From Candidatus Vogelbacteria bacterium (GTDB lineage Bacteria; Patescibacteriota; Minisyncoccia; Phycocordibacterales; XYD1-FULL-46-19): a DNA stretch of 64,000 nt. The notes beneath the pieces were generated by a model that saw only the letters and a list, made by a program, of their open reading frames with translations, did not search any database and was not told the DNA's origin. Made by a program: the position numbers and the translations under genes. Where the stretch lies: positions 16,293-80,292 of the forward strand of contig CAIPHT010000007.1 in assembly GCA_903864935.1 (NCBI GenBank), given 5' to 3'. Below, one piece after another: positions 3,537 through 39,715 of this stretch (position 1 is the stretch's first letter; the number at the start of each line of letters is the position of its first letter).

Positions 3537-3538
3537 GC

Positions 3539-4465: not shown

Positions 4466-4468
4466 ATT

Positions 4469-8629: not shown

Positions 8630-8630
8630 A

Positions 8631-10967
8631 ATGTTCAAGCTATTAACAAATAAGAAAAAAATAATTTTAACATTCCTCGTTGGTGTTGGTATCTTAATCA
8701 CCCTCCCAGGTTTAGCTTTAGCCGTTGATGGACCAATTGCAACAGAGGGTTACTCGGTCTCGTTTTCTGCCGGGACTGATTTACCCACCATTCCCGCGGC
8801 CACAGGGATAATGGCTCCAAGACCTTCAACCGAAGCCGAACTCACCCAAAGATCCAATAACGACCAGACCCAAATCGATAATCTCCTCCAACTAAAAAAA
8901 CAGCTGTCCATTGCCAGCGAACAGAGTTTTCTTAAAAATGCCAAGACGGGGGCAGTGGTGGGAGCAGCAAACGGTTATACTTATGGCGGAGTAATAGGAA
9001 CAGGCATTGGAGCAGTCAGGGGCTTCTTTTTATACAATAGCCAGAGAAAAAACTCTATTGCTTTGCTAGACAAAAATGCCGATGCCAAAATTGGAGCTCT
9101 CAAAGATGACCAAGGCGCCTGTCTTGATAAAATAAGTGACATTACTAAAGAGGCCGCTCTTGCCGCGGGCGATCAAGTGGCTCTCCAGGCGGCACTAAAT
9201 AAAGCTGATCAAGCAAAACAAAAAATGGCTCAGTCTCGGGCCGCCTACAATAAAGCCGTCGCTCAATTCAAAACCGTCAACAGCCTCGCCTGTTCGGTTA
9301 ATAATCTGGGTAATTGCGTTCTAGAGGTTACCAGCTGGATAGGGAACATTGTTACTTATGTTTTTGCTCTTCTGTTATGGGCGTCAAGTGGTATTTTTGA
9401 TATTGTCGTCAATTTTTCTATCTTGAATATTGGCACTTGGTTTAAACTACCGTTAGTCGCTAGCGCCTGGCGATTAATGAGAGACTTTGCCAATATTTTC
9501 TTCGTCTTTGTCCTTCTTTATATTGCGATTGGCACAATTTTTGACTTAAAGGGTGTCGGCCAAGGACTTCAAAAGACGATAGTTGGCGTTATTGTTATTG
9601 CCCTCTTAGTTAATTTTAGCGGCTTCTTCGTCCGCGTAGTTGTTGATGCTTCTAATATCATCGCCTATGAATTCTATTCGGGGATAAAAAAGGGGGACTC
9701 CACCTTTTCTTTAGGGACGAACCTAGTCCAAAAAATGGATTTGGGTGCTCGTTTTATTGATCCCAGCTCGTTAGAAGATGCCAAAGCACAGGCCGGGGGG
9801 GTCTTTAATAACTCCCCAATACCAGAGGAAGGGGCTGTCGACAAGCTTAGTTTCCTTAGTATTATTGCGGGAACCTTCGGTAACATTTTAATTATCTTGG
9901 CCACTTCTTTTGTTTTACTCACTGCCGCCATTCTATTTATCATCAGGACAATTACTTTATTGTTTATCTATATTATCGCTCCTTTTGCCTTCGTCTCCAA
10001 GATTATCCCAATAAAGAGTTTCAACAAGTTTGATAAATGGTCTGACACCTTAATCAAACAATCATTCTTTGCTCCGGCTTTTCTTATCCCACTTTATCTG
10101 GTCTTCTTAATCCTTGGCCCGACTGGTATCTCTCATCTGGCCTCCACCGCCAAAGGGACAGAGGGTTGGGCCTTTATTGGACAGGACTCCCTCCTTCTAG
10201 TAATGGCTGACGTTTTCATCCTTGGCTTGATTATTGCCTGCATCTTTATCGCTCAATCTTTAAGCGCTATTGGTTTGGGCTTTGCTACCGGTGTTGCTGG
10301 CAAGGCCAATGCCTTAGGCGTTAGAAATATAGGGAGATTTGTTGGCCGACCGGTGGCAACCGTCGCTGGAAAACTAGGAGGCAATAGACTTATTACTGAG
10401 GCTAAATGGGCAGCATCAAAGACCAGGGTCACCAAAGTTTGGAATTCTGCCTCAATGAAAGAAATTAGGGAGACAAAATTCGGCAAGAAGCTAGGCCAAG
10501 CTATAAAAAATCCAATGCTCTCAGCCAATGACGCTCTTGGTTCAGCCGCTGGTTTGGCAGGGGTAAAAAGTTTCAATGTCTTAGGCAGTTCGGCCGAATC
10601 AAGAAAAGATGCCGCCAAAGCAGAAAAGGAGAAAAAAGAAGAAGACGAAAAAAGAAAGAAAGAAGACAGAGAAAAAGCACTAAAAACCGCCAGTACAGCT
10701 GAAGCCTTAACGATACTTGGTGGTATGACTGACGGCGAGATCAAAGATTTACCAGCTGATATTATTACTTTACCAGCTATTTCTCTAAATCTAGAAAATG
10801 ACCAACTTGTAGCAATCAACAAGGCCGGAAAATTAACCAAAGACCATAAGAAGGCCGTTAAACAAATAATCATGGGAATCGCACCAAAAGGAATACCTGG
10901 CACGATGGGAACACCAGAAGGACAAATCTTCATGATGACGGGAGCGGGAGCGTCCTGGCCGAGATAA
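8631..10967 (+). CDS. polytopic membrane protein, TrbL/VirB6-like T4SS channel component
   Basis: Signal peptide plus a ~200-aa periplasmic coiled-coil region, then at least 6 TM helices (residues ~230-540), then a Lys/Glu-rich cytoplasmic tail (KAEKEKKEEDEKRKKEDREK). Architecture and operon position fit TrbL/VirB6. Start 2 nt after the previous stop. Confidence 0.5.
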   Translation: MFKLLTNKKKIILTFLVGVGILITLPGLALAVDGPIATEGYSVSFSAGTDLPTIPAATGIMAPRPSTEAELTQRSNNDQTQIDNLLQLKKQLSIASEQSFLKNAKTGAVVGAANGYTYGGVIGTGIGAVRGFFLYNSQRKNSIALLDKNADAKIGALKDDQGACLDKISDITKEAALAAGDQVALQAALNKADQAKQKMAQSRAAYNKAVAQFKTVNSLACSVNNLGNCVLEVTSWIGNIVTYVFALLLWASSGIFDIVVNFSILNIGTWFKLPLVASAWRLMRDFANIFFVFVLLYIAIGTIFDLKGVGQGLQKTIVGVIVIALLVNFSGFFVRVVVDASNIIAYEFYSGIKKGDSTFSLGTNLVQKMDLGARFIDPSSLEDAKAQAGGVFNNSPIPEEGAVDKLSFLSIIAGTFGNILIILATSFVLLTAAILFIIRTITLLFIYIIAPFAFVSKIIPIKSFNKFDKWSDTLIKQSFFAPAFLIPLYLVFLILGPTGISHLASTAKGTEGWAFIGQDSLLLVMADVFILGLIIACIFIAQSLSAIGLGFATGVAGKANALGVRNIGRFVGRPVATVAGKLGGNRLITEAKWAASKTRVTKVWNSASMKEIRETKFGKKLGQAIKNPMLSANDALGSAAGLAGVKSFNVLGSSAESRKDAAKAEKEKKEEDEKRKKEDREKALKTASTAEALTILGGMTDGEIKDLPADIITLPAISLNLENDQLVAINKAGKLTKDHKKAVKQIIMGIAPKGIPGTMGTPEGQIFMMTGAGASWPR

Positions 10968-16221: not shown

Positions 16222-17433
16222 ATGAAAAAAGCGCTAACTATAATTCTCCTAGTCCTTATCGCTGGTTCTTTAGGCACTCTTGGTTTTTTTATTTATAAGC
16301 AAAGTCAATCTACTACAAGAACTGTCACCAATACCCCAGTCTCGGAAGAGTCACCCTTCCCAATGGGGAGTAGTACTAACCCCGTTACCACCAACTATAA
16401 CTCCGGCAATAGTTCAACTAATTATCCTGAGGCTAATCAGCCCCTCGGCGTTCCTAACCAACCAGCCTTAAGCCAAATGAGTTTGGCGGGTATAACAGTT
16501 CTTTCAATTAACAAAAATCTCCAAACTTTTTTTACGGATAAAGAAACAGGTAATATATATTCTCTCGACGGCCAAAATAATCCCACGAGACTTAGTCTCG
16601 TGACCCTCCCCGGAGTTGAGGAATCTTATCTTGGTTATAGAAACAACAGTTTAGGTATTATCTTGCGACAAATCAAAGGGTTAAATATTGTAAATGAAAT
16701 CGGCCAAATTAAACTAGACAGCTCAGCCCCGACAACATTAAACCCCCACCTTTGGGATATCTCTCTCAGTTCTCTTGCCCTCTCTCCCAACAGCCAAAAA
16801 ATTTCTTTCTTAACCGAGATAACGGATAAAACCATACTTTATACGACAGATTGGTCCCTCCAAAAACCTAAGAAACTCTGGAGCTCACCACTCTCCAGTT
16901 GGAATATTTCATGGCCCAAAGATAGTTTAATTGTCATTACCTCTAAACCCTCTTATGATTACCCCGGTGTGGCTTATTTCCTAGATGCCCAAACCGGCAA
17001 AGAAACGAAGATATTAAACAACATTAATGGGCTAAATCTGTCTGTTTCGCCCAATGGAGACAAACTTATCTATACCAAGAGTTTACTTAGTGGCTTTAGC
17101 TTGTACTCTTATGATACAAAAGTAGAGGAAAGTCGTCTTCTCGATTTCAACACTCTTCCCGATAAATGTGTTTGGTCTGACAATGATACTTTATATTGTG
17201 CAGTACCAAAAAATATCCCAACTGGGCACTACCCCGATAATTGGTATCAAGGCAAAATTAGTTTCTCTGACAATGTTTGGAAAATTGATTTAAAACAAAA
17301 GACAACTACCATCGTCAGCACCCTAAAGGGGGATTATGATTTGTATAACCTAGTCATAAACAAACAAACAGGCTGGCTCTATGCCCTTAATCGAGGAGAT
17401 AATAAGCTCCAAGCCTTTAGTTTGAAGCCTTAG
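16222..17433 (+). CDS. secreted beta-propeller-like protein (TolB/PD40-like repeats)
   Basis: Signal peptide plus Ser/Thr/Asn-rich linker; C-terminal repeats such as LSVSPNGDKLIYTKS; last gene of the operon. 3' end overlaps yidC convergently by 17 nt. Confidence 0.5.
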   Translation: MKKALTIILLVLIAGSLGTLGFFIYKQSQSTTRTVTNTPVSEESPFPMGSSTNPVTTNYNSGNSSTNYPEANQPLGVPNQPALSQMSLAGITVLSINKNLQTFFTDKETGNIYSLDGQNNPTRLSLVTLPGVEESYLGYRNNSLGIILRQIKGLNIVNEIGQIKLDSSAPTTLNPHLWDISLSSLALSPNSQKISFLTEITDKTILYTTDWSLQKPKKLWSSPLSSWNISWPKDSLIVITSKPSYDYPGVAYFLDAQTGKETKILNNINGLNLSVSPNGDKLIYTKSLLSGFSLYSYDTKVEESRLLDFNTLPDKCVWSDNDTLYCAVPKNIPTGHYPDNWYQGKISFSDNVWKIDLKQKTTTIVSTLKGDYDLYNLVINKQTGWLYALNRGDNKLQAFSLKP

Positions 17434-18178
17434 GGGCCCTTAGGACCGCGTCCTGGTCCTTAATCTTCTTAATAACCACCACCTCATAGATGGCGGAGAA
17501 AACGTTACTGGTGACCCAATAAAGGGAGATGGCCGCGGGTAAAGTAAAGGCGATAACCGCCGTCATCACCGGCATAGCATAACGCATTTGGAAATCCATA
17601 CTCTTGGCTAAATCCTGGCCAAAAGAGACCTCTTTTTTGTCTGAAGACTTATTTTTTTCTCGCTTGGGTAGAGAAAGTGTAACCTGGAGATATTGAGTTA
17701 CCCCAGTTAAAAAGGCGAGAGCATAATTATGACTAACCGTTAATTTAACAAAACCCAAGAAAATTGTGTTGATATGATTGGGGATAGTAATAAAAGAGTA
17801 AACAAGGTTGATGTCAATAGTAAAACTCTGGCGAAAGACATAAAAAAGGGAAATAATAATAGGAATTTGGATAAGCAAAACCAAAAAGCTGCTAAAGGGG
17901 TTAATCTTCTCTTTTTTATATAATTCCATCGTCAGGCGAGACTGTTCGGGTAAATTATCTTTGTTTTGCTCTTTTATCGCCTTCAATTCACCCTCGACAG
18001 CCTTCATTTTTATTTGAGTCATTACCGAGGTCTTATAGAGAGGGAAAATGACAATTTTAACTAGAATAGTAAGAAGAATAATGGCCAAACCAAGATCTGC
18101 CCCAGGGAGAATCGCCGTGAGCCAAACCAGAAGATTGTAGAGGGGGATAAAAACAATTATTTTGAAAAAATTAATCAT
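17417..18178 (-). CDS. yidC: membrane protein insertase YidC (short form)
   Basis: Motifs ILLTILVKIVIFPL and MQIKMKAVEGELKAIKEQ, five TM segments, conserved position downstream of rnpA. Confidence 0.85.
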   Translation of the reverse strand: MINFFKIIVFIPLYNLLVWLTAILPGADLGLAIILLTILVKIVIFPLYKTSVMTQIKMKAVEGELKAIKEQNKDNLPEQSRLTMELYKKEKINPFSSFLVLLIQIPIIISLFYVFRQSFTIDINLVYSFITIPNHINTIFLGFVKLTVSHNYALAFLTGVTQYLQVTLSLPKREKNKSSDKKEVSFGQDLAKSMDFQMRYAMPVMTAVIAFTLPAAISLYWVTSNVFSAIYEVVVIKKIKDQDAVLRAPKASN

Positions 18179-18195
18179 ATTTTGCTATTCTAACA

Positions 18196-18552
18196 CTATT
18201 TTAAAATTTTAGCTGTTCTAATTAAAGCCAAGACCTCTTCCTCAAACTGTTTGAATTCAAGTCTAGAAAGATCCTCTTTTACTTGGATGATAATATCTGA
18301 ATTATTTACCACTTCGGGCCAGATTTTTTCTAAAATAGCGTGGAGACGCCTCTTGATCAAATGGCGACGGGCCGAGAGGGGAACAACCTTATTCCCAATA
18401 ACCACCGCCACCCTCGGACTTTGGCCATAATTCTCCTCTGTGGATAACCTGTTATGAACTCGAATATTAAGACTAGGGGACGAGAAAACCCTGTTTTGTT
18501 TCAAAACAAGGGGTAAAAGCTCTTTATTTATACGGTATTTAACCGGAAGCAT
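18196..18552 (-). CDS. rnpA: ribonuclease P protein component
   Basis: RNR-like basic motif ARRHLIKRRL; 118 aa; immediately downstream of rpmH. Confidence 0.8.
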   Translation of the reverse strand: MLPVKYRINKELLPLVLKQNRVFSSPSLNIRVHNRLSTEENYGQSPRVAVVIGNKVVPLSARRHLIKRRLHAILEKIWPEVVNNSDIIIQVKEDLSRLEFKQFEEEVLALIRTAKILK

Positions 18553-18555
18553 TAA

Positions 18556-18690
18556 TTAGACAGCCAATTTATGGCGACCTTTGAGACGGCGTCGGGCCAA
18601 AACCTTAGCCCCGGTTGGGGACTTAGTTCGAGCCAAAAAACCATGGGTAGTGGCTCGTTTCTTCTTTTTAGGATTATACGTAAAAGACAT
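18556..18690 (-). CDS. rpmH: 50S ribosomal protein L34
   Basis: Not in the ORF track (44 aa). Minus-strand translation is [44 protein letters not shown], the canonical L34 sequence. Sits 3 nt upstream of rnpA. Confidence 0.85.
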
Positions 18691-18820
18691 GGGGATAGTA
18701 TACCAGAAAAAAAGCTTTTAGCAATATCCACAAGTAATCCACCACATATAAACAGAATAGGTAAGATTGCTAGTTTTTCCACAAGGCCTATAATTGAAGC
18801 AAGTAAGATAATTATTTTAT
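18691..18820. promoter_or_regulatory. dnaA upstream region with DnaA-box-like 9-mers
   Basis: aTATCCACA at 18725..18733 and TTTTCCACA at ~18776..18784 (consensus TTATCCACA); divergent rpmH/dnaA promoter region. Confidence 0.4.
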
Positions 18821-20197
18821 ATGGAAGGAATTTTAGACAACAAGAAACTCTGGGAAAATGCCCTTAATGAGATCGAGTTGTCTATCTCTAAAGCTAACTT
18901 CGGCACCTGGTTTAAAAACACCCACATTATTAAATGTGATGACGGAATTATTCAATTAGCTGTTCCCAATGCTTTTGTTCGTGACTGGTTAGCTAATAAG
19001 TATCACAAGTTCATCTTGAAAGCTCTCCGCGATATGGAAGATGGGGTAAGATCTATCGAATACGTAATTAGCCGCCCCGACGACCAATCATCTAGTAATA
19101 AGGCTAAGATTGGTGTCAACAAAGACAACCTTCTTAGTAATGACCTTGGTTTAAAGGATCTCTATATTAACAAAGAGAGTAATCTTAATCCTAAATATGA
19201 TTTTAGCACCTTCATTGTTGGATCCTTTAATGATGTGGCCTATGCCGCTGGTCAAGCGGTAATTAAGAATCCAGGGACTGTTCATAATCCACTCTTTATT
19301 TATGGTGGAACAGGTTTGGGTAAGACCCACCTTCTCCAAGCAATTGGCAACCAGATTAAAAAGAATAATCCTAATAAATCAGTTTATTATATTAGTTCGG
19401 AGAACTTCATTGTGGAACTTATTAGTAATATTCAGAACAATAAAGGTAATAGCTTTAAGGAAAAGTTCCGCAAATATGACCTTCTTATTATTGATGATGT
19501 CCAATTTTTCTCTAACAAAGAGCATTCTCAAGAAGAACTCTTCCATTTATTCAATCATTATTACGATAACAATAAACAAATTATCTTTTCTTCAGATAAA
19601 CCCCCTAAATTTATTCCTAACCTTGAGGAGAGACTGCGTTCACGCTTCGAAGGGGGGATTATTATTGATATTTCCAAGCCTGATTATGAATCACGCTTAG
19701 CTATCCTAAGAAATAAGAATAAAACCTTAGAAATAAAGATTCCTGATGAGGTTCTCGAGTATCTTGCTTCTGTTATTCAAGACAGTATTAGAGAACTAGA
19801 GGGTTCTCTTAACTCTATTATTCTCCAATCTCAGGCTAAAAATAAAGAGATTACCTTACAAGAAGTGAAGGGGATTATTAAGAATAATATCAAACCTCAG
19901 AAAACTATTTCTATTAAAGACGTTATGCATGTTGTGGCTGATTACTATAATATTGAAGAGGCAATTCTCTATGAGAAAACTCGTCGTAAAGAGGTGGTTA
20001 AACCACGACAAATTATTATGTATATATTAAGAGAAGACTTTAATACTTCTTACCCTTATATTGGCCAAAAATTAGGTGGGAGAGACCACACAACAGTTAT
20101 TCACGCTTACGAAAAAATAAAAGAAGAAGTAAAAAATAATTCAGCCCTTGTCCAAGAGTTAGAACAAATTAGATCACTTCTTTACGCTAATAATTAA
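18821..20197 (+). CDS. dnaA: chromosomal replication initiator protein DnaA
   Basis: AAA+ Walker A GGTGLGKTHLLQAIGN, sensor motifs, C-terminal DNA-binding domain (TVIHAYEKI); 458 aa. Confidence 0.95.
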   Translation: MEGILDNKKLWENALNEIELSISKANFGTWFKNTHIIKCDDGIIQLAVPNAFVRDWLANKYHKFILKALRDMEDGVRSIEYVISRPDDQSSSNKAKIGVNKDNLLSNDLGLKDLYINKESNLNPKYDFSTFIVGSFNDVAYAAGQAVIKNPGTVHNPLFIYGGTGLGKTHLLQAIGNQIKKNNPNKSVYYISSENFIVELISNIQNNKGNSFKEKFRKYDLLIIDDVQFFSNKEHSQEELFHLFNHYYDNNKQIIFSSDKPPKFIPNLEERLRSRFEGGIIIDISKPDYESRLAILRNKNKTLEIKIPDEVLEYLASVIQDSIRELEGSLNSIILQSQAKNKEITLQEVKGIIKNNIKPQKTISIKDVMHVVADYYNIEEAILYEKTRRKEVVKPRQIIMYILREDFNTSYPYIGQKLGGRDHTTVIHAYEKIKEEVKNNSALVQELEQIRSLLYANN

Positions 20198-20432
20198 ATT
20201 TCTGTTAATAACCTGTGGAGAAGATTGTTAATAAAAAGATATTAAAAACAGGATAAGTTATAGAAAAATAAAAATATTATTTTAGAAGTAAAATTAATCT
20301 TAAGTAATCAACAGTTGAATAAAATTTATTATCTCAAATATGTTGCCAAATAAAGATATTCTGAGTTCTCCACATATCCCCAACTATAACAATAATAAGT
20401 TTCTTTTTAATTAAAAATAATTTATAAATACT
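20198..20432. other. candidate oriC (dnaA-dnaN intergenic, AT-rich with inverted DnaA-box-like pair)
   Basis: Very AT-rich 235-bp spacer. TGTGGAGAA at 20214..20222 and its reverse complement TTCTCCACA at 20366..20374 flank an AT-rich stretch. Confidence 0.45.
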
Positions 20433-21536
20433 ATGAAGCTAGAATGTCTAAAAGATAAATTTAAAGATGCTATTATCTTAGCCGAGAAGATAAGTGGGCG
20501 TAACTTAACCTTACCAATTCTAAGTACTATCCTGCTTGAGACTAAGAATAAGAATTTAATAATCAGAGCGACAAACTTAGAAGTGGGGATAGAAATAGAG
20601 ATTCCGGCCAAGATTGAAACTAGTGGTTTAGTGGCGGTTAATGCGAGTATTCTCTTGAATTATCTTAATAATCTTACTAAAGAAGAAAAAATAACCCTTG
20701 AGCTAGATAATAATAATCTTAAATTAAGTACTGAATCAACCCAAACGATTATTAAGAGTCTGGCGCCTGAAGATTTTCCTATTATTCCTAAAATTGCTCA
20801 GGAAGGTGGTTTTGAGATTAAGGCAGTTGATTTTGTCTCAGGCTTACAAGCTGTCTCTTTTGCAAGTGCAGTATCTGATATAAAACCAGAGATATCTAGC
20901 GTTTATCTTCATAATGAGAATCAAGATTTGATTTTTGTTGCCACCGACTCCTTTAGATTAGCCGAGAAAACAATAAATAATATCCCTAATTTAAGTAATC
21001 TTAATATTATTATTCCCTTTAAGAACGTGAACGAATTGATTAGAGTTCTAACTAGTTTGGGGACGAACCAAGTTGTTGTTAGTTATAATAAGAATCAATT
21101 AGCTATCCAGACAGACAATCTCTATCTTACTTTAAGGGTAATTGATGGTAATTATCCCGATTATAAACAAATCATCCCAACCAAATTTAATACTGAATTA
21201 AATATCAAAAAAGAAGATTTTGTTGGGTTACTTAAACTCTCAACAATTTTCTCTGATCGCTTTAATCAAATTGATATAACCTTTAAACCAGATTCTAATA
21301 CACTAGAAGTTTTATCTCATAACCAAGAAGTAGGGGAGAATAAATCGTCTTTAGTAATTAAAATTAAGGGCGAACCATTAATTATTAGCTTTAATGCTAA
21401 GTATTTACTAGATTGCCTTAGTTCCTTTAGTGATAATGTAATTAATCTACGTTTTACTGAGACAAGTCGACCTCTAATGATAGAGGGGACAACGGATAAC
21501 TCTTTCCATTATCTTGTGATGCCGATCAATAAGTAA
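20433..21536 (+). CDS. dnaN: DNA polymerase III subunit beta (sliding clamp)
   Basis: Three-domain clamp of 367 aa; N-terminus MKLECLKDKFKDAI...LTLPILSTILLE; conserved position after dnaA. Confidence 0.9.
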   Translation: MKLECLKDKFKDAIILAEKISGRNLTLPILSTILLETKNKNLIIRATNLEVGIEIEIPAKIETSGLVAVNASILLNYLNNLTKEEKITLELDNNNLKLSTESTQTIIKSLAPEDFPIIPKIAQEGGFEIKAVDFVSGLQAVSFASAVSDIKPEISSVYLHNENQDLIFVATDSFRLAEKTINNIPNLSNLNIIIPFKNVNELIRVLTSLGTNQVVVSYNKNQLAIQTDNLYLTLRVIDGNYPDYKQIIPTKFNTELNIKKEDFVGLLKLSTIFSDRFNQIDITFKPDSNTLEVLSHNQEVGENKSSLVIKIKGEPLIISFNAKYLLDCLSSFSDNVINLRFTETSRPLMIEGTTDNSFHYLVMPINK

Positions 21537-21537
21537 G

Positions 21538-21789
21538 ATGGATAACTTCAAAGATCTCCTTAAACTTTATAGTCAAAAATTAAATAGTACTCAATTAATT
21601 ATTGACGAAATTCTAGCTGTTATAAATAAAGAAACCGGTCTAAATCTTAATAAAACAAATTTAGTAACCAGAGATGGTATTGCTTATCTTAAAGTTAAAC
21701 CAAAACAAAAATTAGAGATTATCCTACATAAAGACAGGATAATCTCTAATTTTAAAGAAGAAAAAATTCTAATTACTGACCTAAAGTAA
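21538..21789 (+). CDS. small protein, possibly DUF721/DciA-like
   Basis: 83 aa directly after dnaN; segment TRDGIAYLKVKPKQKLEIILHKDRII loosely follows the DUF721 pattern. Weak. Confidence 0.3.
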   Translation: MDNFKDLLKLYSQKLNSTQLIIDEILAVINKETGLNLNKTNLVTRDGIAYLKVKPKQKLEIILHKDRIISNFKEEKILITDLK

Positions 21790-24226
21790 AAATGACTGTT
21801 TTGGTACTACTATTACCAGCTTGGTCATAAATAACAGCTTTTAGTTCATGTTTTCCTTTAGAAATAAGTGATTCTCCTGGGTTGAAAGCAAGAGAAAAAG
21901 GAGAATTTTTGGTTGATGTTAATTTATTATTATCAATAAAATAATCAACTTGAGATAAATTTAGATTACTAGGGAGAAGAAGAGAAATGTTAATATCACT
22001 TTGAAGTGAAAAATTACTTCCCTCTGTGGGGGAAAGAATATCAACCTGGTTGAGAAGTCTCACTTGATCTGGGTTAGGGGCACTCATAATCGTTTCTCCT
22101 CCTAAGCGTTGTGCTTTGGTCTTGAGCCATTGTTGAATAGGATATTCCCAAAGATTAAATTGCGGATCACCCGCTGGGTTACTTGGCCGTGGTCCCAAAG
22201 GATTATTTTTATCAAGCCAGTAGAGGATAGAATGAACATTATTATTAAGGACTTCTTGTCCGTTGATAATACTTGTCTCTCCACCTTGCCAATAACCACG
22301 AAGGACAGGCTTCAGACCGGCATAATTGACCACAGGGGGGATGAATTTCTCGTCTGGGGTGATAGCTAGCGCCTCCTTCATGACAGAGCTCCAGAGAGGT
22401 GTTAGGAGGTAACCAGCCACCTTCTTCTCCATTGGGGTGTTGTCACTGTTACCAGCCCAGGCCCCAACCACAACATTGGGGGTATAACCAATAACCCAAG
22501 CGTCCTTGTAGTCGTTTGTTGTCCCCGTTTTAACAGCCACCTGACGATTACCAAACCAGAGGTTAGAGTGGACACCATAAGCAGGAGCACGCGCGTTGTC
22601 ATCAGCCAAAATATCCGTTATTAATCTAGCGGTATTAACAGGAAGAACAACCTCATTCTTATCCTGATACTCTTCTATTTTGTCGCCATTTGGCCCAAGA
22701 ACACTAAGAACACCAACGGTGGCATGTTTAACTCCATCAGTGGCAAAGGTGCCATAAGCACCAGTCATATCGAGGAGAGAGACTTCACCACCACCCAAAA
22801 CGAGGGTTAAACCATATTGATTTTTATCACCAAGATTAGTAATTCCCATTTTTTTGGCTAAATCCAAAGCATCATTAATCCCAACGAGGTAAAGTAATTT
22901 AACCGCTGGGATATTGCGTGATTGGCCAAGAGCCTGTCTTAAGGTTAAGGGTCCGGGGAATTTTAAGTCATAATCATTAGGGGAGTAACATTTTGCTCCA
23001 GCGGTGAGCGGTTTGCTGGTAGGACTACAATTAGTATTAAATTCAGTTTTGAGGTCAAAAAGAACGGTCTGGTCAGTATAGCCTTTATTGAAGGCAGCGG
23101 CATAAACAAAGGGTTTGAAGGAAGAACCTGGTTGGCGATAAGCCGTGGCCACATTGAAATTACCACTAATTGCTTGGTTGAAGTAGTCACGCGAGCCGGT
23201 AAAAGCAAGAATTTGCCCTGTTTTCGGATCAATAATAACAATACTATTATTCTTAGCATTAAACTTGGTCTCGTTCTCGGTACCATATTTCTTAGCTAAT
23301 TCCTCAACTTTTTGTTGTAGATCCCAATTGATAGTGGAGATAACTTTGAAATCGTTATTCTCAATATTATCTAAGCCATAACGCTCAGCTAATTGATCCT
23401 TAAGCCAGAGAACAAAGTGAGGAGCCTTGATTCCCTGATTGATCTTCTCGTAGAAGGCGACTCGCTCTTGTTTAGCTTTATTATAATCAGTTTGAGAAAT
23501 GAGCTTGAGATCTAACATACGACTTAAGACCAAATTCTTTCTTTGTTCTAGTTTGGCTTTATTTGCCCCATAAGGAGAGTAATAATTAGGGGCTTGGGGC
23601 ATCGAGGCTAAATAAGCAGCCTCCGCGAGAGTAATCTGGGTAATATCTTTATGGAAATAGGCTTTAGCGGCCTCTTGAACCCCATAAATATTACCCCCAT
23701 AAGGAGATTGATTAAGATAAACATTCAAGATCTCGTCCTTCGTCATATTATTCTCCAGTTTAATTGAGAGAATAACTTCTTTAATCTTGCGAGTAATCGT
23801 CTTATCGCGTGTTAGAAGAGAATTTTTTACTACTTGCTGGGTGATTGTAGAGCCACCTTGTTGGGCCCCGCCAGAGACGAGGTCAACCAATAAGGCTCGG
23901 GCGATTGAGGTTGGTTGAATTCCTTTGTGTTGATAGAAACCAGCATCTTCGATTGCGATTGTGGCGTTCTTCATAATTTGGGGGATGGTCTGGAAAACGA
24001 CCGGAGTACGACGAACCCCTTTAACATCATAGAGCAAAATTTGACCAGTCCGGTCATAAATTTTCATTGACCGCTCAGCAATTTGTTTGGTGAAGAAGGT
24101 CTCGAAATCAGGCACCGGGAGAGTGATAGCCCAAATGGTAGTAAAACTACTCAAAAGGAGAAAAGCCGTGATAACAAAGAGGATTAAACTATAAATTTTA
24201 CTAAGATTATTTTTATGTTTAGACAT
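21773..24226 (-). CDS. mrcA: class A penicillin-binding protein (PBP1A; transglycosylase plus transpeptidase)
   Basis: N-terminal TM; GT51 motifs (EDAGFYQHKG, GGSTITQQ); transpeptidase SxxK (SSFKPF), SxN, KTGTT; C-terminal extra beta domain. Confidence 0.9.
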   Translation of the reverse strand: MSKHKNNLSKIYSLILFVITAFLLLSSFTTIWAITLPVPDFETFFTKQIAERSMKIYDRTGQILLYDVKGVRRTPVVFQTIPQIMKNATIAIEDAGFYQHKGIQPTSIARALLVDLVSGGAQQGGSTITQQVVKNSLLTRDKTITRKIKEVILSIKLENNMTKDEILNVYLNQSPYGGNIYGVQEAAKAYFHKDITQITLAEAAYLASMPQAPNYYSPYGANKAKLEQRKNLVLSRMLDLKLISQTDYNKAKQERVAFYEKINQGIKAPHFVLWLKDQLAERYGLDNIENNDFKVISTINWDLQQKVEELAKKYGTENETKFNAKNNSIVIIDPKTGQILAFTGSRDYFNQAISGNFNVATAYRQPGSSFKPFVYAAAFNKGYTDQTVLFDLKTEFNTNCSPTSKPLTAGAKCYSPNDYDLKFPGPLTLRQALGQSRNIPAVKLLYLVGINDALDLAKKMGITNLGDKNQYGLTLVLGGGEVSLLDMTGAYGTFATDGVKHATVGVLSVLGPNGDKIEEYQDKNEVVLPVNTARLITDILADDNARAPAYGVHSNLWFGNRQVAVKTGTTNDYKDAWVIGYTPNVVVGAWAGNSDNTPMEKKVAGYLLTPLWSSVMKEALAITPDEKFIPPVVNYAGLKPVLRGYWQGGETSIINGQEVLNNNVHSILYWLDKNNPLGPRPSNPAGDPQFNLWEYPIQQWLKTKAQRLGGETIMSAPNPDQVRLLNQVDILSPTEGSNFSLQSDINISLLLPSNLNLSQVDYFIDNNKLTSTKNSPFSLAFNPGESLISKGKHELKAVIYDQAGNSSTKTVIFTLGQ

Positions 24227-30038: not shown

Positions 30039-31736
30039 CTAAATTATCTCCTCGTACAGATCTATCACACGGCCCATTTCTTCTATCGTTGTTTCTCCTT
30101 TAATAACCTTCAGGACTCCATCTTGGCGCATGTCCAAGATTTTTTGCGGTATGGCGGCAATCTTAATTTCTTTTTCATTTGGATTGGTAATGGCGGCGGC
30201 TGCTACGGCGTCATCCATATAAATGGCTTCGAAGATGCCCTGACGGCCCTTGAAGCCAGTATTGTGGCACTCGTCACAACCAACACTTTTATAAACCTTA
30301 GTCCAAGTAGCGGGGACAAGCCCAGGGCGCTTTTTCTTAATGCTCTCTAAGACCTTATCAATTAACTCTTTCTCCCAAGGCTCAGGTTCTCGCTCTTGTT
30401 TGCAGACGGGGCAGAGCTTGCGCAAGAGACGCTGGGCAATAGATAGAGTAAGGGCGGAGGTAATAATCTTGGGATTAAGATTAAGATCAATCAAGCGGGG
30501 GATAGCGCCTTGGGCGTTATTGGTGTGCAAGGTTGAGAAGACTAAGTGCCCTGTTAACGATGATTGCACAGCAATCTTAGCGGTCTCGGGATCGCGAATT
30601 TCTCCCACCATGATAATATCCGGGTCTTGACGCAAGGCGCTTCGGAGACCAGAGAGGAAAGTGTAACCTTGCTTCCTATTGACCTGAGTCTGGTTGATGC
30701 CCTCGAGGTGATATTCAATTGGGTCTTCAATCGTGATGATTTTGCTCTCGGTGGAGTTAATCTCGCGCAAGAAGGAGTAGAGGGTCGTGGTTTTACCAGA
30801 GCCGGTTGGACCAGTAAGTAAGACAAGGCCGTTCGGCTTGTGAATTTCTTTATTAAAGACCTCAAACAATTCTTTCTCGATGCCCAATTTCTCGAAGGTG
30901 ACATTGATCGACTCCGGATTCAAGATACGCATAACGACCGATTCGCCATAGGCGGTGGGGATGACCGAAGAACGAATTTCAATCTCAGTATTCTTAAGTA
31001 TAATACTGAAGCGACCATCTTGAGAGGCGAGTTTAACATTCAACTTCATACCTGAGACAAGCTTGAGACGAGAGATAATCTGATTATAGATTTTGCTCGG
31101 GAAAACAGCCACATCTTCAAGTACGCCATCGAGGCGATAACGGAGACGAATATTGTCTTGCTCTGGTTCAATATGAATATCAGAGGCATCAGTCACGAGT
31201 CCGCCAGCCATAATAATTTCTAAGATAATAGAGATACCGCCCTGCTTCTCGGCGAGGTTGCTCTCTTTCTCGATCTCGACTCGGATATCCTTAAGAGTTT
31301 TGAAGCGGGTGGTATAATCCGCGATACTCTCACTGGAGATTTCGATTAGACCAGCATGAGACCTCTCAGATTTGGAGATTTCTTCATATTTGGCCCAGGC
31401 GCTCTCGAGGCCACTTAGAGAAGTGACATATAGAGTTATTTCAAAATTCTTGTTTTTTAATTCCTCAATGATACCCAAGGTCTCTGGTTTGTTGGGAGAG
31501 TCAACGGCGACATTTATTTTTTTGCCTGAGACAGAGAAAGCGACAATACTACCGGCGCGAGCGTCGGCTTCGGTCACCAGACGAAGAGCATCGGTATTAA
31601 CAAGAGTGCGAGTGAGATCAATGTAGGGGAGCTTGTATTTATCCGCCATCACTTGAGCCAGCTCTTCAGCCTCTCTGGTTCGCAAATCAGAAATTTGCTC
31701 ATCAGTAACTCCTTGTTTAAGTGGATCGTTGCTCAT
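30039..31736 (-). CDS. pilB: type IV pilus assembly / type II secretion ATPase (PilB/GspE family)
   Basis: N-terminal GspII_E_N region, Walker A LLTGPTGSGKTTTLYSFL, Asp/His boxes, tetracysteine CPVC...CDEC zinc motif; 565 aa. Confidence 0.9.
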   Translation of the reverse strand: MSNDPLKQGVTDEQISDLRTREAEELAQVMADKYKLPYIDLTRTLVNTDALRLVTEADARAGSIVAFSVSGKKINVAVDSPNKPETLGIIEELKNKNFEITLYVTSLSGLESAWAKYEEISKSERSHAGLIEISSESIADYTTRFKTLKDIRVEIEKESNLAEKQGGISIILEIIMAGGLVTDASDIHIEPEQDNIRLRYRLDGVLEDVAVFPSKIYNQIISRLKLVSGMKLNVKLASQDGRFSIILKNTEIEIRSSVIPTAYGESVVMRILNPESINVTFEKLGIEKELFEVFNKEIHKPNGLVLLTGPTGSGKTTTLYSFLREINSTESKIITIEDPIEYHLEGINQTQVNRKQGYTFLSGLRSALRQDPDIIMVGEIRDPETAKIAVQSSLTGHLVFSTLHTNNAQGAIPRLIDLNLNPKIITSALTLSIAQRLLRKLCPVCKQEREPEPWEKELIDKVLESIKKKRPGLVPATWTKVYKSVGCDECHNTGFKGRQGIFEAIYMDDAVAAAAITNPNEKEIKIAAIPQKILDMRQDGVLKVIKGETTIEEMGRVIDLYEEII

Positions 31737-31812
31737 TTTTATAATTTTACCGCGTTACTACTTACATTACTAGCACCCATTAAACTTAACGCAAAGTGGA
31801 TAAGTACCATTC

Positions 31813-31963
31813 GGCTTAGTAGTTTTGAAAACCACACAAAAATCTCCGGCGAAGATTTTTGCTCGCGTTCCGCGTTGCCGTTTTGCCTTCGCACTGCTGT
31901 GCATAAGGAAGGCAAAATCCCTGCCGGCAACAGCTTCACGAGGCTTTTCAAAATTACTAAGCC
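31813..31963. other. GC-rich structured non-coding element upstream of pilB
   Basis: 19-nt inverted repeat (1 mismatch) GGCTTAGTAGTTTTGAAAA / TTTTCAAAATTACTAAGCC enclosing a terminator-like hairpin (AAAAATCTCCGGCGAAGATTTTT) and nested 7+7-bp stems (GTTGCCGTTTTGCC ... GGCAAAATCCCTGCCGGCAAC). Confidence 0.4.
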
Positions 31964-32017
31964 TCATTTGTTGTCCGGAGAGGCTTTTTAAACGAAACAA
32001 CCTTCGTTCATTTGTGC

Positions 32018-32046
32018 TTGACAGATATGTTAGACTATGCTATACT
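32018..32046 (+). promoter_or_regulatory. near-consensus sigma70 promoter (TTGACA-N17-TATACT)
   Basis: TTGACA at 32018..32023, TATACT at 32041..32046, 17-nt spacer; followed by RBS AAAGGA 8 nt before the ATG at 32120. Confidence 0.55.
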
Positions 32047-32119
32047 ATAGGTAGAAATGCAGTATTGAGTTGGGAATAACTGGCGAGCTTAAAGGCCGCC
32101 TTAATGAAAGGATTTCCCC

Positions 32120-32779
32120 ATGAAGAACCTTGTTATAGTCGTTGTTTTTGTTGTCATGTTGGCGTCGGTTGCTTTTGCCCAGTCTGGGCAGAGCGTGACC
32201 TTTCACCAGCCCAACGGCGGGACGTCCACCTGGACCCCGCCGGCGGCGCAGATGGTCAAGACCCCGTGCTACGGCACGGTGCCGAGAGCCAACGGACCGG
32301 TCGTCCGTCAGCTTCAGTCGCAGTGGCCTTCTCAGGTCTCCGCCCCGATGCCGCCGGTTGTGGGTGGGACAACATCGGCTGATCCGAGCGGTGTAGCCTC
32401 CCTTCGGGGTGGCATAGTTGCCGCGCGCCCTGTTCCTTCGGGTAACCCCGAGGTCGACAGAGACAACAACCAGACGGACCTCCAATGGGGTCAGTTGGCG
32501 GCTGAGCGTGAGCGCAGCAACCAGCAGGCTGATCTGGAGAGAGTCCAGATCGAAAGGCAATACGACATCCAACGCCGTGAAGAGTCTCGCCAGACGGTTC
32601 AGACTTTGGCCAATGTCATCCAGAATTGGCAGGATGGACAGGCTCGGCGCGAAGACTCGAAGGCCTCGCGGCGAATTGAGGCAAACTGGCAGGCTCAGAA
32701 CGCCGCTCAGCAAGCGGCAGACCGCGCGAGCCAGTTGGCCCAAACGGCCATGTCAGCGGCCGCCGCGGCCAGGCACTAA
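32120..32779 (+). CDS. secreted Gln/Arg-rich protein encoded in a GC-rich island
   Basis: Signal peptide MKNLVIVVVFVVMLASVAFA-QS. GC-rich coding region that produces long shadow ORFs in other frames. Own promoter and terminator. Confidence 0.55.
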   Translation: MKNLVIVVVFVVMLASVAFAQSGQSVTFHQPNGGTSTWTPPAAQMVKTPCYGTVPRANGPVVRQLQSQWPSQVSAPMPPVVGGTTSADPSGVASLRGGIVAARPVPSGNPEVDRDNNQTDLQWGQLAAERERSNQQADLERVQIERQYDIQRREESRQTVQTLANVIQNWQDGQARREDSKASRRIEANWQAQNAAQQAADRASQLAQTAMSAAAAARH

Positions 32780-32795
32780 GTTTAGTAAAGGGTCC

Positions 32796-32840
32796 GAGCC
32801 CCTGGGAGAGAGTCACTCTCCCAGGGGCTTTTTCTTTTGT
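32796..32840 (+). terminator. rho-independent terminator
   Basis: GCCCCTGGGAGAG-AGTCACT-CTCTCCCAGGGGC followed by TTTTTCTTTTG. Confidence 0.65.
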
Positions 32841-32878: not shown

Positions 32879-33367
32879 ATGAAAGAGACAAAAATTATTT
32901 CTAAATCACTCGAAGATACTTATAATGTTGCCAAGCTTTTTCTTTCTAACCTAAAACCTAAAAGTTTACCCCGTGGCGGAGCTTTACGGGGCTCCCAAGC
33001 TGCTGTTGTTTTACTCGAAGGGGACTTAGGAGGAGGTAAGACCACGTTTACTCAAGCCTTGGCCCGCGAACTTGGGGTGAAGAATTATCTTACGAGTCCG
33101 ACCTTTGTTTTAATGAAAAGCTACAAGATTTCTCCCGAAGTCACTGAGAGGCTTCGCCTCTCAGTTAAGAATCTTATTCATATTGATGCTTATCGCTTAA
33201 ATTCTGGCGCTGATTTGTTGAATCTTGGCTGGGCTGAGCTCGTCGCTAATCCCGCCCACTTAATTGTGTTAGAATGGCCAGAGAAGGTGGCCGACCTCTT
33301 CGACGGTTTGGAGCACAAAATCAAGTTCAAATTTATTGATGAACAAAAAAGAGAAATAATTTTATAA
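32879..33367 (+). CDS. tsaE: tRNA threonylcarbamoyladenosine biosynthesis protein TsaE
   Basis: P-loop LEGDLGGGKTTFTQALAREL, SPTFVLMKSY, HIDAYRL; start set at MKETKI (ATG 32879). Confidence 0.8.
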   Translation: MKETKIISKSLEDTYNVAKLFLSNLKPKSLPRGGALRGSQAAVVLLEGDLGGGKTTFTQALARELGVKNYLTSPTFVLMKSYKISPEVTERLRLSVKNLIHIDAYRLNSGADLLNLGWAELVANPAHLIVLEWPEKVADLFDGLEHKIKFKFIDEQKREIIL

Positions 33368-33789: not shown

Positions 33790-33857
33790 CTTTATAAAAT
33801 AAGGCCTAATAGAGGTCTCACTTCCATAAGCCGTAGCCACGTTAAATAATCAAGACC

Positions 33858-33887
33858 TTGACGAGTAGGGCTATTTAGGGGTATATC
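33858..33887 (+). promoter_or_regulatory. sigma70-like promoter of GC-rich cassette (TTGACG-N18-TATATC)
   Basis: TTGACGAGTAGGGCTATTTAGGGGTATATC; near-identical in sequence to the promoter at 38851..38880. Confidence 0.5.
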
Positions 33888-33972
33888 TGAAGCAGATAAT
33901 CATTGTCATTTTACTCGGTGTCTCTGGGTGAAATGTTGAAATATCGGCGAACAGAAATAAGGAAAACTGACC

Positions 33973-34614
33973 ATGGATTACATGCTCAGCAAAGCGCTCC
34001 GCGAATTCAATTCCGGACCGCTTCATCAACTTCTAGTGAATCTTGGTGGGGAAGAGGGCGCAATGTGGGAAGCAGAGCTCAAAAAGTTCAATCGCAAGGA
34101 AACCTGCTGGCCCAAGACGAACCCCTACCTGCGCAAGCTCGCGGACGGCACGCTTCCGGCGACCGACGGCCAGCGAACGATGGTCAGGGCGAAGGACATG
34201 TTTCCCGGCTACTTCGGGAAAGATTACGCTAACTGGGGAACGGATGTCCCTGGCAAAGCGACGCCGGAAATGCCATTCCAAGTGTATGAGCTGGTCATGG
34301 ACGGTAAATTCGCGCAGATCTTCGGCGGATTCGCCCGTCCACTCGGCGAGTTGTGCTGGGAACAAGACAAGATCCTCGCGTTTGTGGAGGGTCACCCCGA
34401 ACGGCTCCACCCGCAGGGCTACGGGACCTTCTTCTTGTTCAAGGTTAAGTTCAAGGAGAACACCGAGAACAAGCGAGAGGAGTTCTTCGTTGCCAACGTC
34501 TACCGGGACGGTGGCCAGCTCAAGGCGCACGTGTTCCGGTTCTCGTTCGACAGCGTCTGGCCTGCCGGGTATCGCTATCGCTTCGTGGTCCCGCAACTGG
34601 CCTCAGCCGTTTAG
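33973..34614 (+). CDS. GC-rich cassette protein, paralog family member 1
   Basis: RBS AAGGAAAA. Shares VNxLGGEE N-terminal motif and C-terminal FFVANVYRDGGQLKAHVFRFSFDSVWPAGYRY motif with 39012..39605, 56425..56793, 59273..59920 and 53722..53901. Confidence 0.6.
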   Translation: MDYMLSKALREFNSGPLHQLLVNLGGEEGAMWEAELKKFNRKETCWPKTNPYLRKLADGTLPATDGQRTMVRAKDMFPGYFGKDYANWGTDVPGKATPEMPFQVYELVMDGKFAQIFGGFARPLGELCWEQDKILAFVEGHPERLHPQGYGTFFLFKVKFKENTENKREEFFVANVYRDGGQLKAHVFRFSFDSVWPAGYRYRFVVPQLASAV

Positions 34615-34708
34615 TCTCTGTTTCCCCTTTGTCGCTTTGATCCTCAATCCCTTGGACCCTTTCGGGGGCCCAGGGGATTTTTGCTATAAATGAGTTATAC
34701 TTAAGGCA

Positions 34709-38154: not shown

Positions 38155-38764
38155 CCTTAGCGAGCGAGATGTAGCTCTTAAGAAAATCAGAGACGAAGTC
38201 TTAACCCTAGAAGACTCGCCTCTGTTTTTGTATCGGACAGAGAATAATTATTTGCCGGTGATCGGCGAAGGGAGTCACATTGCGAAGATTATGTTGGTGG
38301 GGGAGGCCCCAGGGAGGAATGAGGCGAAGTCGGGCAAACCTTTTTGTGGTTCGGCGGGAAAGATCTTAGACTCTCTCTTGGCCGAAGCCGGATTAAAAAG
38401 AGAAGAAATTTATATTACGAATATTGTCAAAGACCGACCACAAAAGAATAGAGATCCCTTGCCAGAGGAGATAGAAATGTATGGCCCATTTTTAGACCGG
38501 CAAATTGATATCATTCAGCCGAGAGTTTTAGTTGGCCTCGGGCGTTATTCATCCAAGTATCTCCTAGGGAAATTTGGTTTGGCCGAAGCAACACTCCCAA
38601 TTAGTGAACTCCACGGGAGGGCTTTTGAGGCAGTCGCTCCTTATGGTAAAGTGACCATAGTCCCTCTCTACCACCCCGCCGCCGCGATTTATAACCAACG
38701 CCTGATTGAGACTCTCAAAAAAGATTTTAAGATTTTGCCCTCCCTCCTCCCGCCAGACCTCTAG
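38120..38764 (+). CDS. udg: uracil-DNA glycosylase, family 4
   Basis: GEGSHIAKIMLVGEAPGRNEAKSGKPFCGSAGKILD (family-4 motif A) and C-terminal HPAAAIYN motif B; overlaps the mgtC 3' end. Alternative start at 38135. Confidence 0.85.
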   Translation: MTKKIMAITKNNLSERDVALKKIRDEVLTLEDSPLFLYRTENNYLPVIGEGSHIAKIMLVGEAPGRNEAKSGKPFCGSAGKILDSLLAEAGLKREEIYITNIVKDRPQKNRDPLPEEIEMYGPFLDRQIDIIQPRVLVGLGRYSSKYLLGKFGLAEATLPISELHGRAFEAVAPYGKVTIVPLYHPAAAIYNQRLIETLKKDFKILPSLLPPDL

Positions 38765-38850
38765 TGCTGTGCCCCTCGAAGCTTTAGCGAAGTGGGGAGC
38801 CCGAGGTCTGGCGGGTCTTAAATTGTCTTAAAACAAGGCTTTTCTTACTA

Positions 38851-38880
38851 TTGACAAGTAGGGCAATTTGGGTGTATAAT
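38851..38880 (+). promoter_or_regulatory. consensus sigma70 promoter of GC-rich cassette (TTGACA-N18-TATAAT)
   Basis: TTGACAAGTAGGGCAATTTGGGTGTATAAT; homologous to the promoters at 33858 and 59081. Confidence 0.55.
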
Positions 38881-39011
38881 GTAAGTAGAAGTTTGAAATA
38901 GAAATAGCGTTTTTTGTGAGGCAAACCGTGTTTGTCTTGCTGTCTTGTTTGGCCTCTTGCCTATCAGGTGAGAGGAACCCCCGACTATCAGTCGGGAGAA
39001 AGGCTACGGCC

Positions 39012-39605
39012 ATGTCAAAGTATGGACACAGAACAGGAGACTGGTGTGAGGCGATTGTGAACAAGCTTGGAGGAGAAGAAGCGGCTGACGCTTTCCTTCG
39101 GGACGAGTTGGTCATCTCCAAACGGCCCGCCGATGCCATCCTCGAGTTCGTCGGCACGGCCAACATCGCCGCCACGACAACGAAGTTCGTCGCCAAGGAA
39201 AAGTTCAAGCTGAAGAAGGATGGGGGCATCTGCTCCTATATCGGCGACAACTTCAAGGACTGGTTCGGCGGCAAAGAGGAGGATCCGCTTGCCGAAACCA
39301 CGCTCCGCTATGCCAAACTCCGCAAGTCGTCCGTCGACACCCCGATTGTCGCCGAGCTTGGCGGTGAAGCAAAGGCCGAGACCACGTTGACGGAAGTCTT
39401 TGGTCTTATGTCCAAACAGGCCAAGGCCGAGACTGGCGTTCTCCTCACCAATGGCTGGGCGAACATCTTCTATGTTCGCGATCAGAATGGTGTGTTGCGC
39501 GCGGTCTTCGTCCACTGGGACGACGGCGGCTGGAGCGTGCACGCGGGCGAGCTCGGCTACCCGGATACGTGGCTCGATGGCTACCAGGTGTTCTCTCGCA
39601 ATTAG
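39012..39605 (+). CDS. GC-rich cassette protein, paralog family member 2
   Basis: RBS GGGAGAAAGG 9 nt upstream; MSKYGHRTGDWCEAIVNKLGGEEAAD...IFYVRDQNGVLRAVFVHWDDGGWSVHAGELGY. Start set at the internal Met of track ORF 38916..39605. Confidence 0.6.
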   Translation: MSKYGHRTGDWCEAIVNKLGGEEAADAFLRDELVISKRPADAILEFVGTANIAATTTKFVAKEKFKLKKDGGICSYIGDNFKDWFGGKEEDPLAETTLRYAKLRKSSVDTPIVAELGGEAKAETTLTEVFGLMSKQAKAETGVLLTNGWANIFYVRDQNGVLRAVFVHWDDGGWSVHAGELGYPDTWLDGYQVFSRN

Positions 39606-39675
39606 CGCTTAGGGTCTTGGAAACTTCGGGTTTCTGACCCTTAGATCCTTTTGACCCTTTGGCCCTGTTCCCTTA

Positions 39676-39715
39676 ACCCCCGGACGCATTTCGTCCGGGG
39701 GTTTCGCTTTTTGGG
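39676..39715 (+). terminator. rho-independent terminator
   Basis: ACCCCCGGACG-CATTT-CGTCCGGGGGT followed by TTCGCTTTTTGGG. Confidence 0.6.

Follow-up and report, generated by a model that had tools for sequence, protein, structure and literature searches.

What occupies the interval between pilB and tsaE in this CPR bacterium, and do the structured element and the GC-rich gene that share it belong together? Within the 64,000-nucleotide stretch of DNA that was analysed (hereafter, the window), both are placed between pilB (30039-31736, minus strand; T2SSE domain at E 1e-117) and tsaE (32879-33367, plus strand), and GC content is 58-68% across 32100-32800 versus ~43% in the flanks. A preliminary description had listed arms, hairpins, a promoter, an open reading frame and a terminator, all of which proved to be present where it placed them, and had guessed that the structured element was a small RNA, a remnant MITE or a regulatory structure. 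Our preferred reading, which we put at about 70%, is that two adjoining but distinct things meet here, namely a displaced copy of a palindromic repeat and a separate conserved, strongly expressed pilB-tsaE slot with a variable secreted protein.

The exact database look-up of the window PilB returned no record. The closest PilB sequences in GTDB genomes come from Candidatus Paceibacterota metagenome-assembled genomes (L011, 91% identity; L013, 82%; L012, 78%); the PilB of L015 is 84% identical and that of the Vogelbacteria genome L014 69%. The gene order ruvB-pilB-...-tsaE-...-polA is kept in the genomes of these PilB relatives. Elsewhere in the window, dnaA (18821-20197) and dnaN (20433-21536) are found inside a stretch of 26-34% GC (17000-22000), just right of the cumulative GC-skew minimum, and this stretch is the probable replication origin. 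Given the position of dnaA and dnaN near the GC-skew turn, the region of the element and the gene falls on the leading strand, ~12 kb from the origin.

The whole repeat unit, as matched on the plus strand by a covariance model (R1), extends from 31805 to 31972 and is atypical in its placement, having no stop codon before it. Its closing helix is made of a left arm GGCTTAGTAGTTTTGAAAACC (31813-31833) and a right arm GGCTTTTCAAAATTACTAAGCC (31942-31963); the 19-nt portions at 31813-31831 and 31945-31963 carry a single mismatch (2 matches, found in 0/100 shuffles). Inside this helix stand hairpin P2 (31838-31860), with an 8-bp A/U stem and the loop CCGGCGA, which looks like a terminator on the minus strand, and hairpin P3 (31874-31931), a long helix of GTTGCCG plus TTTTGCCTT with a variable apical insert at 31890-31908. 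The nested stems that had been noticed, GTTGCCG/CGGCAAC and TTTTGCCTT/AAGGCAAAA, both belong to P3. A 171-nt stretch folds at -64.6 kcal/mol on the plus strand and -68.9 kcal/mol on the minus strand, with z = -6.5 and 0/200 shuffles as stable in each case, so that the structured element of the preliminary description is real. The closing helix is devoid of a U-tract; as an intrinsic terminator, only the weak A/U-rich P2 qualifies, and on the minus strand only. Immediately adjacent, a terminator-like hairpin read from the sequence (GCCTC-N14-GAGGC followed by TTTTT, 31961-31989, plus strand) has its 5' half in common with the element end; the terminator scanner skips it for its loop of more than 8 nt.

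Strong predicted structure on both strands, together with a terminator-like hairpin on the minus strand upstream of pilB, would suit an independent small RNA gene or a minus-strand cis-regulatory leader of pilB (riboswitch or attenuator). This proposal is largely refuted and we regard it as highly improbable. No promoter was found for the element. The Rfam scan that had been suggested for 31800-31970 gave no family match: with Rfam 15 at the gathering score, the whole window yielded tRNAs only and nothing on the element, and relaxing the search to E up to 10 over 31700-32150 returned chance snoRNA models only (E 5-8). In addition, L011, L012, L013 and L021 hold another sequence at the element site and keep the pilB leader up to GTGGATAAGT; homology to L011 upstream of pilB ends at 31806 (GTGGATAAGT). 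The pilB leader or riboswitch reading is ruled out by these relatives, which keep the leader without the element. Finally, the same element follows SecY, SMC, RpoD and other unrelated housekeeping genes in other genomes, which speaks against both a unique small RNA and a locally acting regulatory structure.

A DnaA-box-like sequence, TTATCCACT, is also present on the minus strand at 31795-31803, just upstream of the putative pilB promoter. The motif GTGGATAA(G/C) is kept in L011, L012, L013, L015 and L021, in the perfect form TTATCCACA in L021, and perfect DnaA boxes are likewise found in the repeat-rich RNase R-SMC spacer of L026 and L043.

The nature of the element became apparent from its copies elsewhere. 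Scanning JGI metagenome contigs with the 21-nt arm pattern GGCTTAGTARTTYTGAAAASC gave 18 loci, mostly full copies, and BLAST and nhmmer recovered full copies in L028, L029, L031, L032, L035, L036, L040, L042 and L043. Conservation elsewhere, on which the preliminary description had made its case depend, is thus strong. The units measure 155-215 nt, with conserved inverted termini GCGCTCGG...CCTCGCTTA and arms of 19-21 nt, and a long closing helix (21 bp) encloses the two hairpins P2 and P3. An alignment of 12 copies (A1, ~185 columns) shows long invariant stretches, a variable insert at the P3 tip and three apical subtypes. Model R1 recognises the window copy with 191 bits (E 1e-52) on the plus strand and 21.5 bits on the minus strand, and it also detects two divergent copies of a second sequence type (type II) in L026 at ~100 bits. 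Every copy within one genome is of a single sequence type. The P2 loop CCRGCGA and the termini are shared between types; the stems differ.

The fold is backed by covariation. Over 15 copies, 96.8% of the cells are paired and 21 of the 50 pairs have changed on both sides, a level reached in 0/500 shuffles and compared with 1-4 such pairs in slid controls; these figures are to be read knowing that the alignment was fitted to the model and that most double changes stem from two type II sequences. Type I alone provides two clean covarying pairs, with UA/CG splits of 6:6 and 7:3, and the TTTYGCC/GGCRAAA pairing of P3 shows UA/CG covariation of 6:6 in A1 and 8:6 in alignment A3. In L005, six substitutions include a compensatory T>C / A>G pair. 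Among the non-Watson-Crick cells, read on the mRNA-sense strand, A.C occurs 10 times versus once for G.U, a weak hint that sense RNA is not the selected form.

Several genomes carry more than one copy, at unrelated sites. One 194-kb contig has a full copy (L029) and a stub (L030, identical with L015), L043 has three copies inside 2.7 kb, and L003 points to a second copy in the window population. The latter contig, from the same sample series and 99.9% identical to the window, starts (1-130) with the end of secY, its TAG stop and GCGCTC, then continues into the element (compare window 31811) and on to P0001-tsaE, P0001 being the protein encoded by the GC-rich gene. This join indicates a copy after secY; it could stem from recombination or from an assembler that jumped from one copy to another. 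A padded SecY query retrieved only SecY fragments of other organisms, downstream of which the element was absent. Seven of the nine contigs with P0001 are shorter than 2 kb, and the majority of these short contigs have their start within the element, which is what assembly breakage at a repeat would produce. In the 64-kb window itself, pattern search, repeat finder, nhmmer and covariance model found no second copy, and none of the six usual host genes is present.

The family is apparently undescribed so far. An exact 33-mer of the element had no match in GTDB representative genomes, two core patterns gave a single chance match in viral contigs (inside a high-GC phage gene), and blastn against phage records found no match. 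Literature searches on CPR or Parcubacteria repeats brought up no description of the element family, and a search on REP, stop-codon and trans-translation work brought up nothing.

As to placement, a long open reading frame is closed by an in-frame TAG 6-9 nt before GGCTTAG in 11 of 13 copies (9 nt, but 6 nt for one copy), and the orientation is the same throughout. The upstream host genes encode SecY, SMC, RpoD (sigma-70), an M23/LysM peptidase, RNase R and FtsW/RodA, and the SecY that precedes the element ends at its natural C-terminus, as in relatives without the element. Since canonical terminators follow the copies in L031, L035 and L040, canonical copies stand between stop codon and terminator. 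Canonical copies would end up in the 3' portion of mRNAs, and their 21-bp helix could there serve in transcript stabilisation or processing.

Between orthologous sites, DNA identity is 61-75% for the host genes and 93-96% for the first 75 nt of the element. A copy is present at the M23 peptidase site of three genomes and at the RNase R site of two, while the SMC site is occupied in five loci, with full copies in L026, L028 and L043 and a 52-nt remnant in L033. Such vertical persistence at orthologous sites is what is seen in REPIN-RAYT systems. The copies at the RNase R and SMC sites are of type II in L026 and of type I in L043, with a site-specific junction sequence common to both genomes; a type switch at the same sites implies concerted evolution within a genome, or renewal in place. 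Decayed copies also exist (a 30-nt stub in L015, the 52 nt of L033, and a copy in L032 whose right arm is replaced by a terminator), as do mosaic clusters with other palindromic modules in L026, L037-L039, L041 and L043, some of them nested. The flanks read NTAG on the left and TTA, TTG or other on the right, and no consistent target-site duplication emerges from comparing the flanks of these filled sites. No transposase-type gene was noticed in the open reading frames listed around the L026 copies. Copies may owe their spread or renewal to an enzyme acting in trans, with the folded single strand and the conserved termini as its recognition features.

This constancy raises the question of selection, and the high conservation, unpaired stretches included, is no less compatible with a selected function than with a selfish repeat. 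The family might be a functional module, either a 3'-UTR RNA or a single-stranded DNA site for a dedicated protein, that controls mRNA 3'-end stability, processing or translation termination after core-gene stop codons, the window copy being a displaced one. The contrast in identity with the host genes, the invariant unpaired segments and P2 loop that persist across types with different stems, the fixed offset from TAG and fixed orientation, the position upstream of the host genes' terminators and the covarying fold all argue for it. We nevertheless hold it to be unlikely, considering that copies are truncated or degraded in L015, L033 and L032, that a single site holds different types in different genomes, and that nested and mosaic clusters occur. 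Moreover, the window copy is equally conserved, yet nothing is predicted to transcribe it; the A.C excess over G.U disfavours a sense RNA; and SecY and the pilB upstream region do without the element in relatives, with no visible compensation.

A broader proposal, which is possible though doubtful, is that of a CPR-specific, long-lived and vertically inherited replicator or RNA/ssDNA module with a dedicated trans-acting partner, homing just after core-gene stop codons, maintained by selection and evolving in concert within each genome. The basis given for selection is an element identity of 93-96% at a protein identity of 60-67%. Under this proposal, the pilB-tsaE slot would be a separate hotspot of secreted-protein diversification, its GC-richness coming from a biased process such as recombination-driven replacement.

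In the preferred reading of two distinct neighbours, the window copy is a displaced family member, most likely without a dedicated local function. It sits between the divergent pilB and P0001 promoters, where it would have landed, and its left terminus has drifted to CCATTC instead of GCGCTC. It is as well conserved as other copies, though no transcription is predicted through it. At the same site in L015, a 30-nt stub is all that is found, consisting of the left arm of the closing helix alone, with TCGGCTTAGTAATTCTGAAAACCAC abutting the -35 box; it follows that either an element already stood here in the ancestor that the window genome and L015 share, or the site was hit twice. At most, the window copy might act, jointly with the adjacent GCCTC/GAGGC-T5 hairpin, as an insulator of the two promoters.

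REPINs and REPs are portrayed in the accounts cited here as short non-coding extragenic elements, multi-copy, with two inverted arms forming a long hairpin, and REPINs as persisting at orthologous positions, mostly vertically inherited and of a genome-specific sequence type (PMC3337134, PMC3116915, 10.1101/2022.05.22.493013). The element family appears to resemble REPINs most, and MITEs as well. It shares with REPINs the two inverted, REP-like arms that form a hairpin outside genes, the multiple copies, the vertical persistence and the genome-specific type. REP sequences have a GTAG head, and a short motif likewise precedes the palindrome here, NTAG in general and GTAG in 5/11 copies. Unlike in REPINs, the spacer is far longer and more structured (~110 nt, highly conserved, folding into two more hairpins, one with a variable tip), placement is tied to stop codons and the hosts are CPR bacteria.

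The Correia elements of Neisseria, which are MITEs of ~100-200 bp with terminal inverted repeats and no open reading frame, occur in many intergenic copies, are co-transcribed with their neighbours, form helices of a size suited to RNase III and break short-read assemblies. Our family is similar in size, terminal inverted repeats, assembly breaks and absence of an open reading frame, which the variable-length centre excludes. It differs in that no TA or other target-site duplication can be defined and no parent insertion sequence sharing its ends is known, in that its internal hairpins covary and keep their loops, which MITEs need not do, and in that canonical copies all point the same way with respect to the gene upstream. 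Of the three original guesses, a remnant MITE thus comes closest, insofar as the element belongs to a multi-copy family bounded by inverted repeats; membership among REPINs or MITEs cannot be claimed. A structured, conserved interior combined with placement at stop codons is unusual for both REPINs and MITEs.

Integron attC sites, such as the Vibrio cholerae repeats, are imperfect palindromes of ~60-140 nt located directly after a gene's stop codon; they are orientation-specific, may bear an extrahelical base, have a folded single strand as their active form, and are alike in sequence within one genome. The palindrome after the stop codon, the single orientation and the homogeneity within a genome recur in our family. 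However, its arms (GGCTTAG/CTAAGCC) do not match the attC core sites (RYYYAAC...GTTRRRY), its copies follow dispersed housekeeping genes rather than forming arrays of promoterless cassettes, and no integrase was seen.

The second component of the locus is the GC-rich gene. A sigma-70-type promoter (TTGACA-17-TATACT with an extended -10 TG, 11/12 positions matching) at 32018-32046, the gene for the 219-aa secreted protein P0001 at 32120-32779 and an intrinsic terminator with a 15-bp stem (10 GC pairs) and a T-tract at 32796-32830, directly upstream of tsaE, follow one another on the plus strand. Promoter-like hits number 8 in the region versus 3.8 +/- 2.1 expected, so the match alone would be weak evidence; the promoter is credible because it is kept in 8/8 relatives, where it aligns with TTGACA...TGCTATA(C/A)T. 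An equivalent terminator hairpin with CTTTTCTTTTTGT is also kept in all eight. The transcription unit of its own that had been proposed for the gene, a predicted one, is in this way corroborated. The open reading frame has 62% GC in a genome of ~43% GC and, in agreement with the GC and codon analysis that had been called for, a GC3 of 0.70 against 0.40 for tsaE; GC3 is highest in this frame, and shadow ORFs do overlap the gene, as had been described along with the high GC. The view of a strain-specific or recent GC island finds no support, given that the pilB-tsaE position of all eight relatives examined holds a gene for a secreted protein that is likewise GC-rich and has this promoter and terminator.

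By inspection, P0001 starts with a Sec signal peptide (residues 1-20, N-terminus MKNLVIVVVFVVMLASVAFA|QS, cleavage AFA|QS) that aligns across homologues, followed by a disordered Pro-rich linker, a conserved core (~88-131) and an R/Q/E-rich helix (110-218). In the AlphaFold2 model (mean pLDDT 71), residues 2-20 form the signal helix, 20-90 are disordered and 110-218 make up one helix of ~110 residues with pLDDT above 90, from which P0001 is probably an extracellular coiled-coil protein. It has the signal peptide with an AXA site, the low-complexity linker and the long charged helix of Sec-secreted coiled-coil proteins, and differs from them in matching no Pfam, NCBIfam or PDB profile and in forming seven clusters, all in the pilB-tsaE slot. 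As to homology, a word-indexed search retrieved only P0001 itself, an exhaustive search of 1.84 billion representatives gave four relatives with 33-40% identity, and a profile search added two, for a family of seven protein clusters in 5.8 billion. The homologues that were looked up (P0002-P0005) are all directly upstream of tsaE and, where the contig reaches that far, divergent from pilB. Their genes have 57-72% GC and a GC3 of 55-81% next to tsaE genes of 38-43% GC, and in every lineage the GC-richness of slot genes extends to all three codon positions.

The content of the slot is far less stable than its frame. In L011, L012 and L013, it encodes signal-peptide proteins that match P0001 in the signal peptide only, and profile comparison of P0001 with the slot proteins of L011 and L012 found no match beyond it. 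L011, the closest relative by PilB (91%), has an unalignable GC-rich secreted protein, and L015 (84%) has a P0001 homologue. The conserved promoter, terminator and position, combined with the swap in L011, lead us to conclude that the slot is kept and that its content diverges very fast and is sometimes replaced, in line with the replaceable slot suggested earlier. The slot (32018-32830) would thus work as a strongly expressed unit with consensus promoter, 5' UTR, Sec signal peptide and strong terminator around a GC-rich coding body that probably evolves very fast and is occasionally replaced. Judged from sequence, P0001 is a predicted lineage-specific secreted protein in a conserved, variable slot.

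The region could alternatively be imagined as a horizontally acquired gene cassette, with the element serving as its recombination site, much as attC does in integrons. The open reading frame is indeed atypical in GC and codon usage, a palindromic element with a bulged base adjoins it and slot content differs among close relatives. We nonetheless find this hardly credible: promoter, terminator and position are kept in all eight relatives and the promoter composition is host-like, most relatives with the gene are without the element, the element elsewhere follows core genes and not cassette arrays, the arms disagree with the attC core as noted above, and the protein has no homologue outside the seven clusters.

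Other features of the neighbourhood deserve mention. Within 33847-34700 and 38848-39710 of the window lie two more ORFan genes of high GC, one of 213 aa (33973-34614) and one of 197 aa (39012-39605), which both have a GC3 of 0.75 and each their own strong promoter and terminator; their promoters share the spacer TTGAC[GA]AGTAGGGC[TA]ATTT[AG]GG[GT]GTATA, and their proteins are weakly and collinearly similar. The first gene is absent from L011, where the open reading frame after tsaE abuts polA. At 38750-38815 of the window, a long hairpin with the stem CCCGCCAGACC...GGTCTGGCGGG spans the TAG stop of a UDG gene, and the same stem recurs upstream of pilB in L011 (4890-4925); it is probably a second palindromic repeat family. 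L011 also encodes, between pilB and the slot promoter (3398-4885), an additional signal-peptide protein of 495 aa that matches no Pfam family. L015 carries a diversity-generating retroelement (bAvd plus reverse transcriptase, 7466-8882) 1.2 kb downstream of tsaE, adjoining another GC-rich ORFan gene of 207 aa. The contig L020 starts (1-30) with the perfect 30-nt palindrome CACACCAACTTGGTTAACCAAGTTGGTGTG; either a fold-back in the assembly or a genuine inverted repeat at the slot's edge towards pilB could account for it.

The genomes of CPR bacteria are small and densely packed, and we know of no catalogue of repeat families in them. Here, a structured repeat located at the stop codons of the genes for SecY, RpoD, SMC, RNase R and FtsW remains constant in sequence across genomes whose proteins are 30-40% diverged. 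It would be a replicator that persists within genomes or else a shared module for 3'-end control, and either would be new for CPR bacteria; besides, the family explains recurrent assembly breaks in Paceibacterota metagenome-assembled genomes. As for the pilB-tsaE slot, it may be a place where these probably symbiotic cells vary a secreted protein predicted to be highly expressed, which makes the slot protein a candidate for interaction with a host or with phages.
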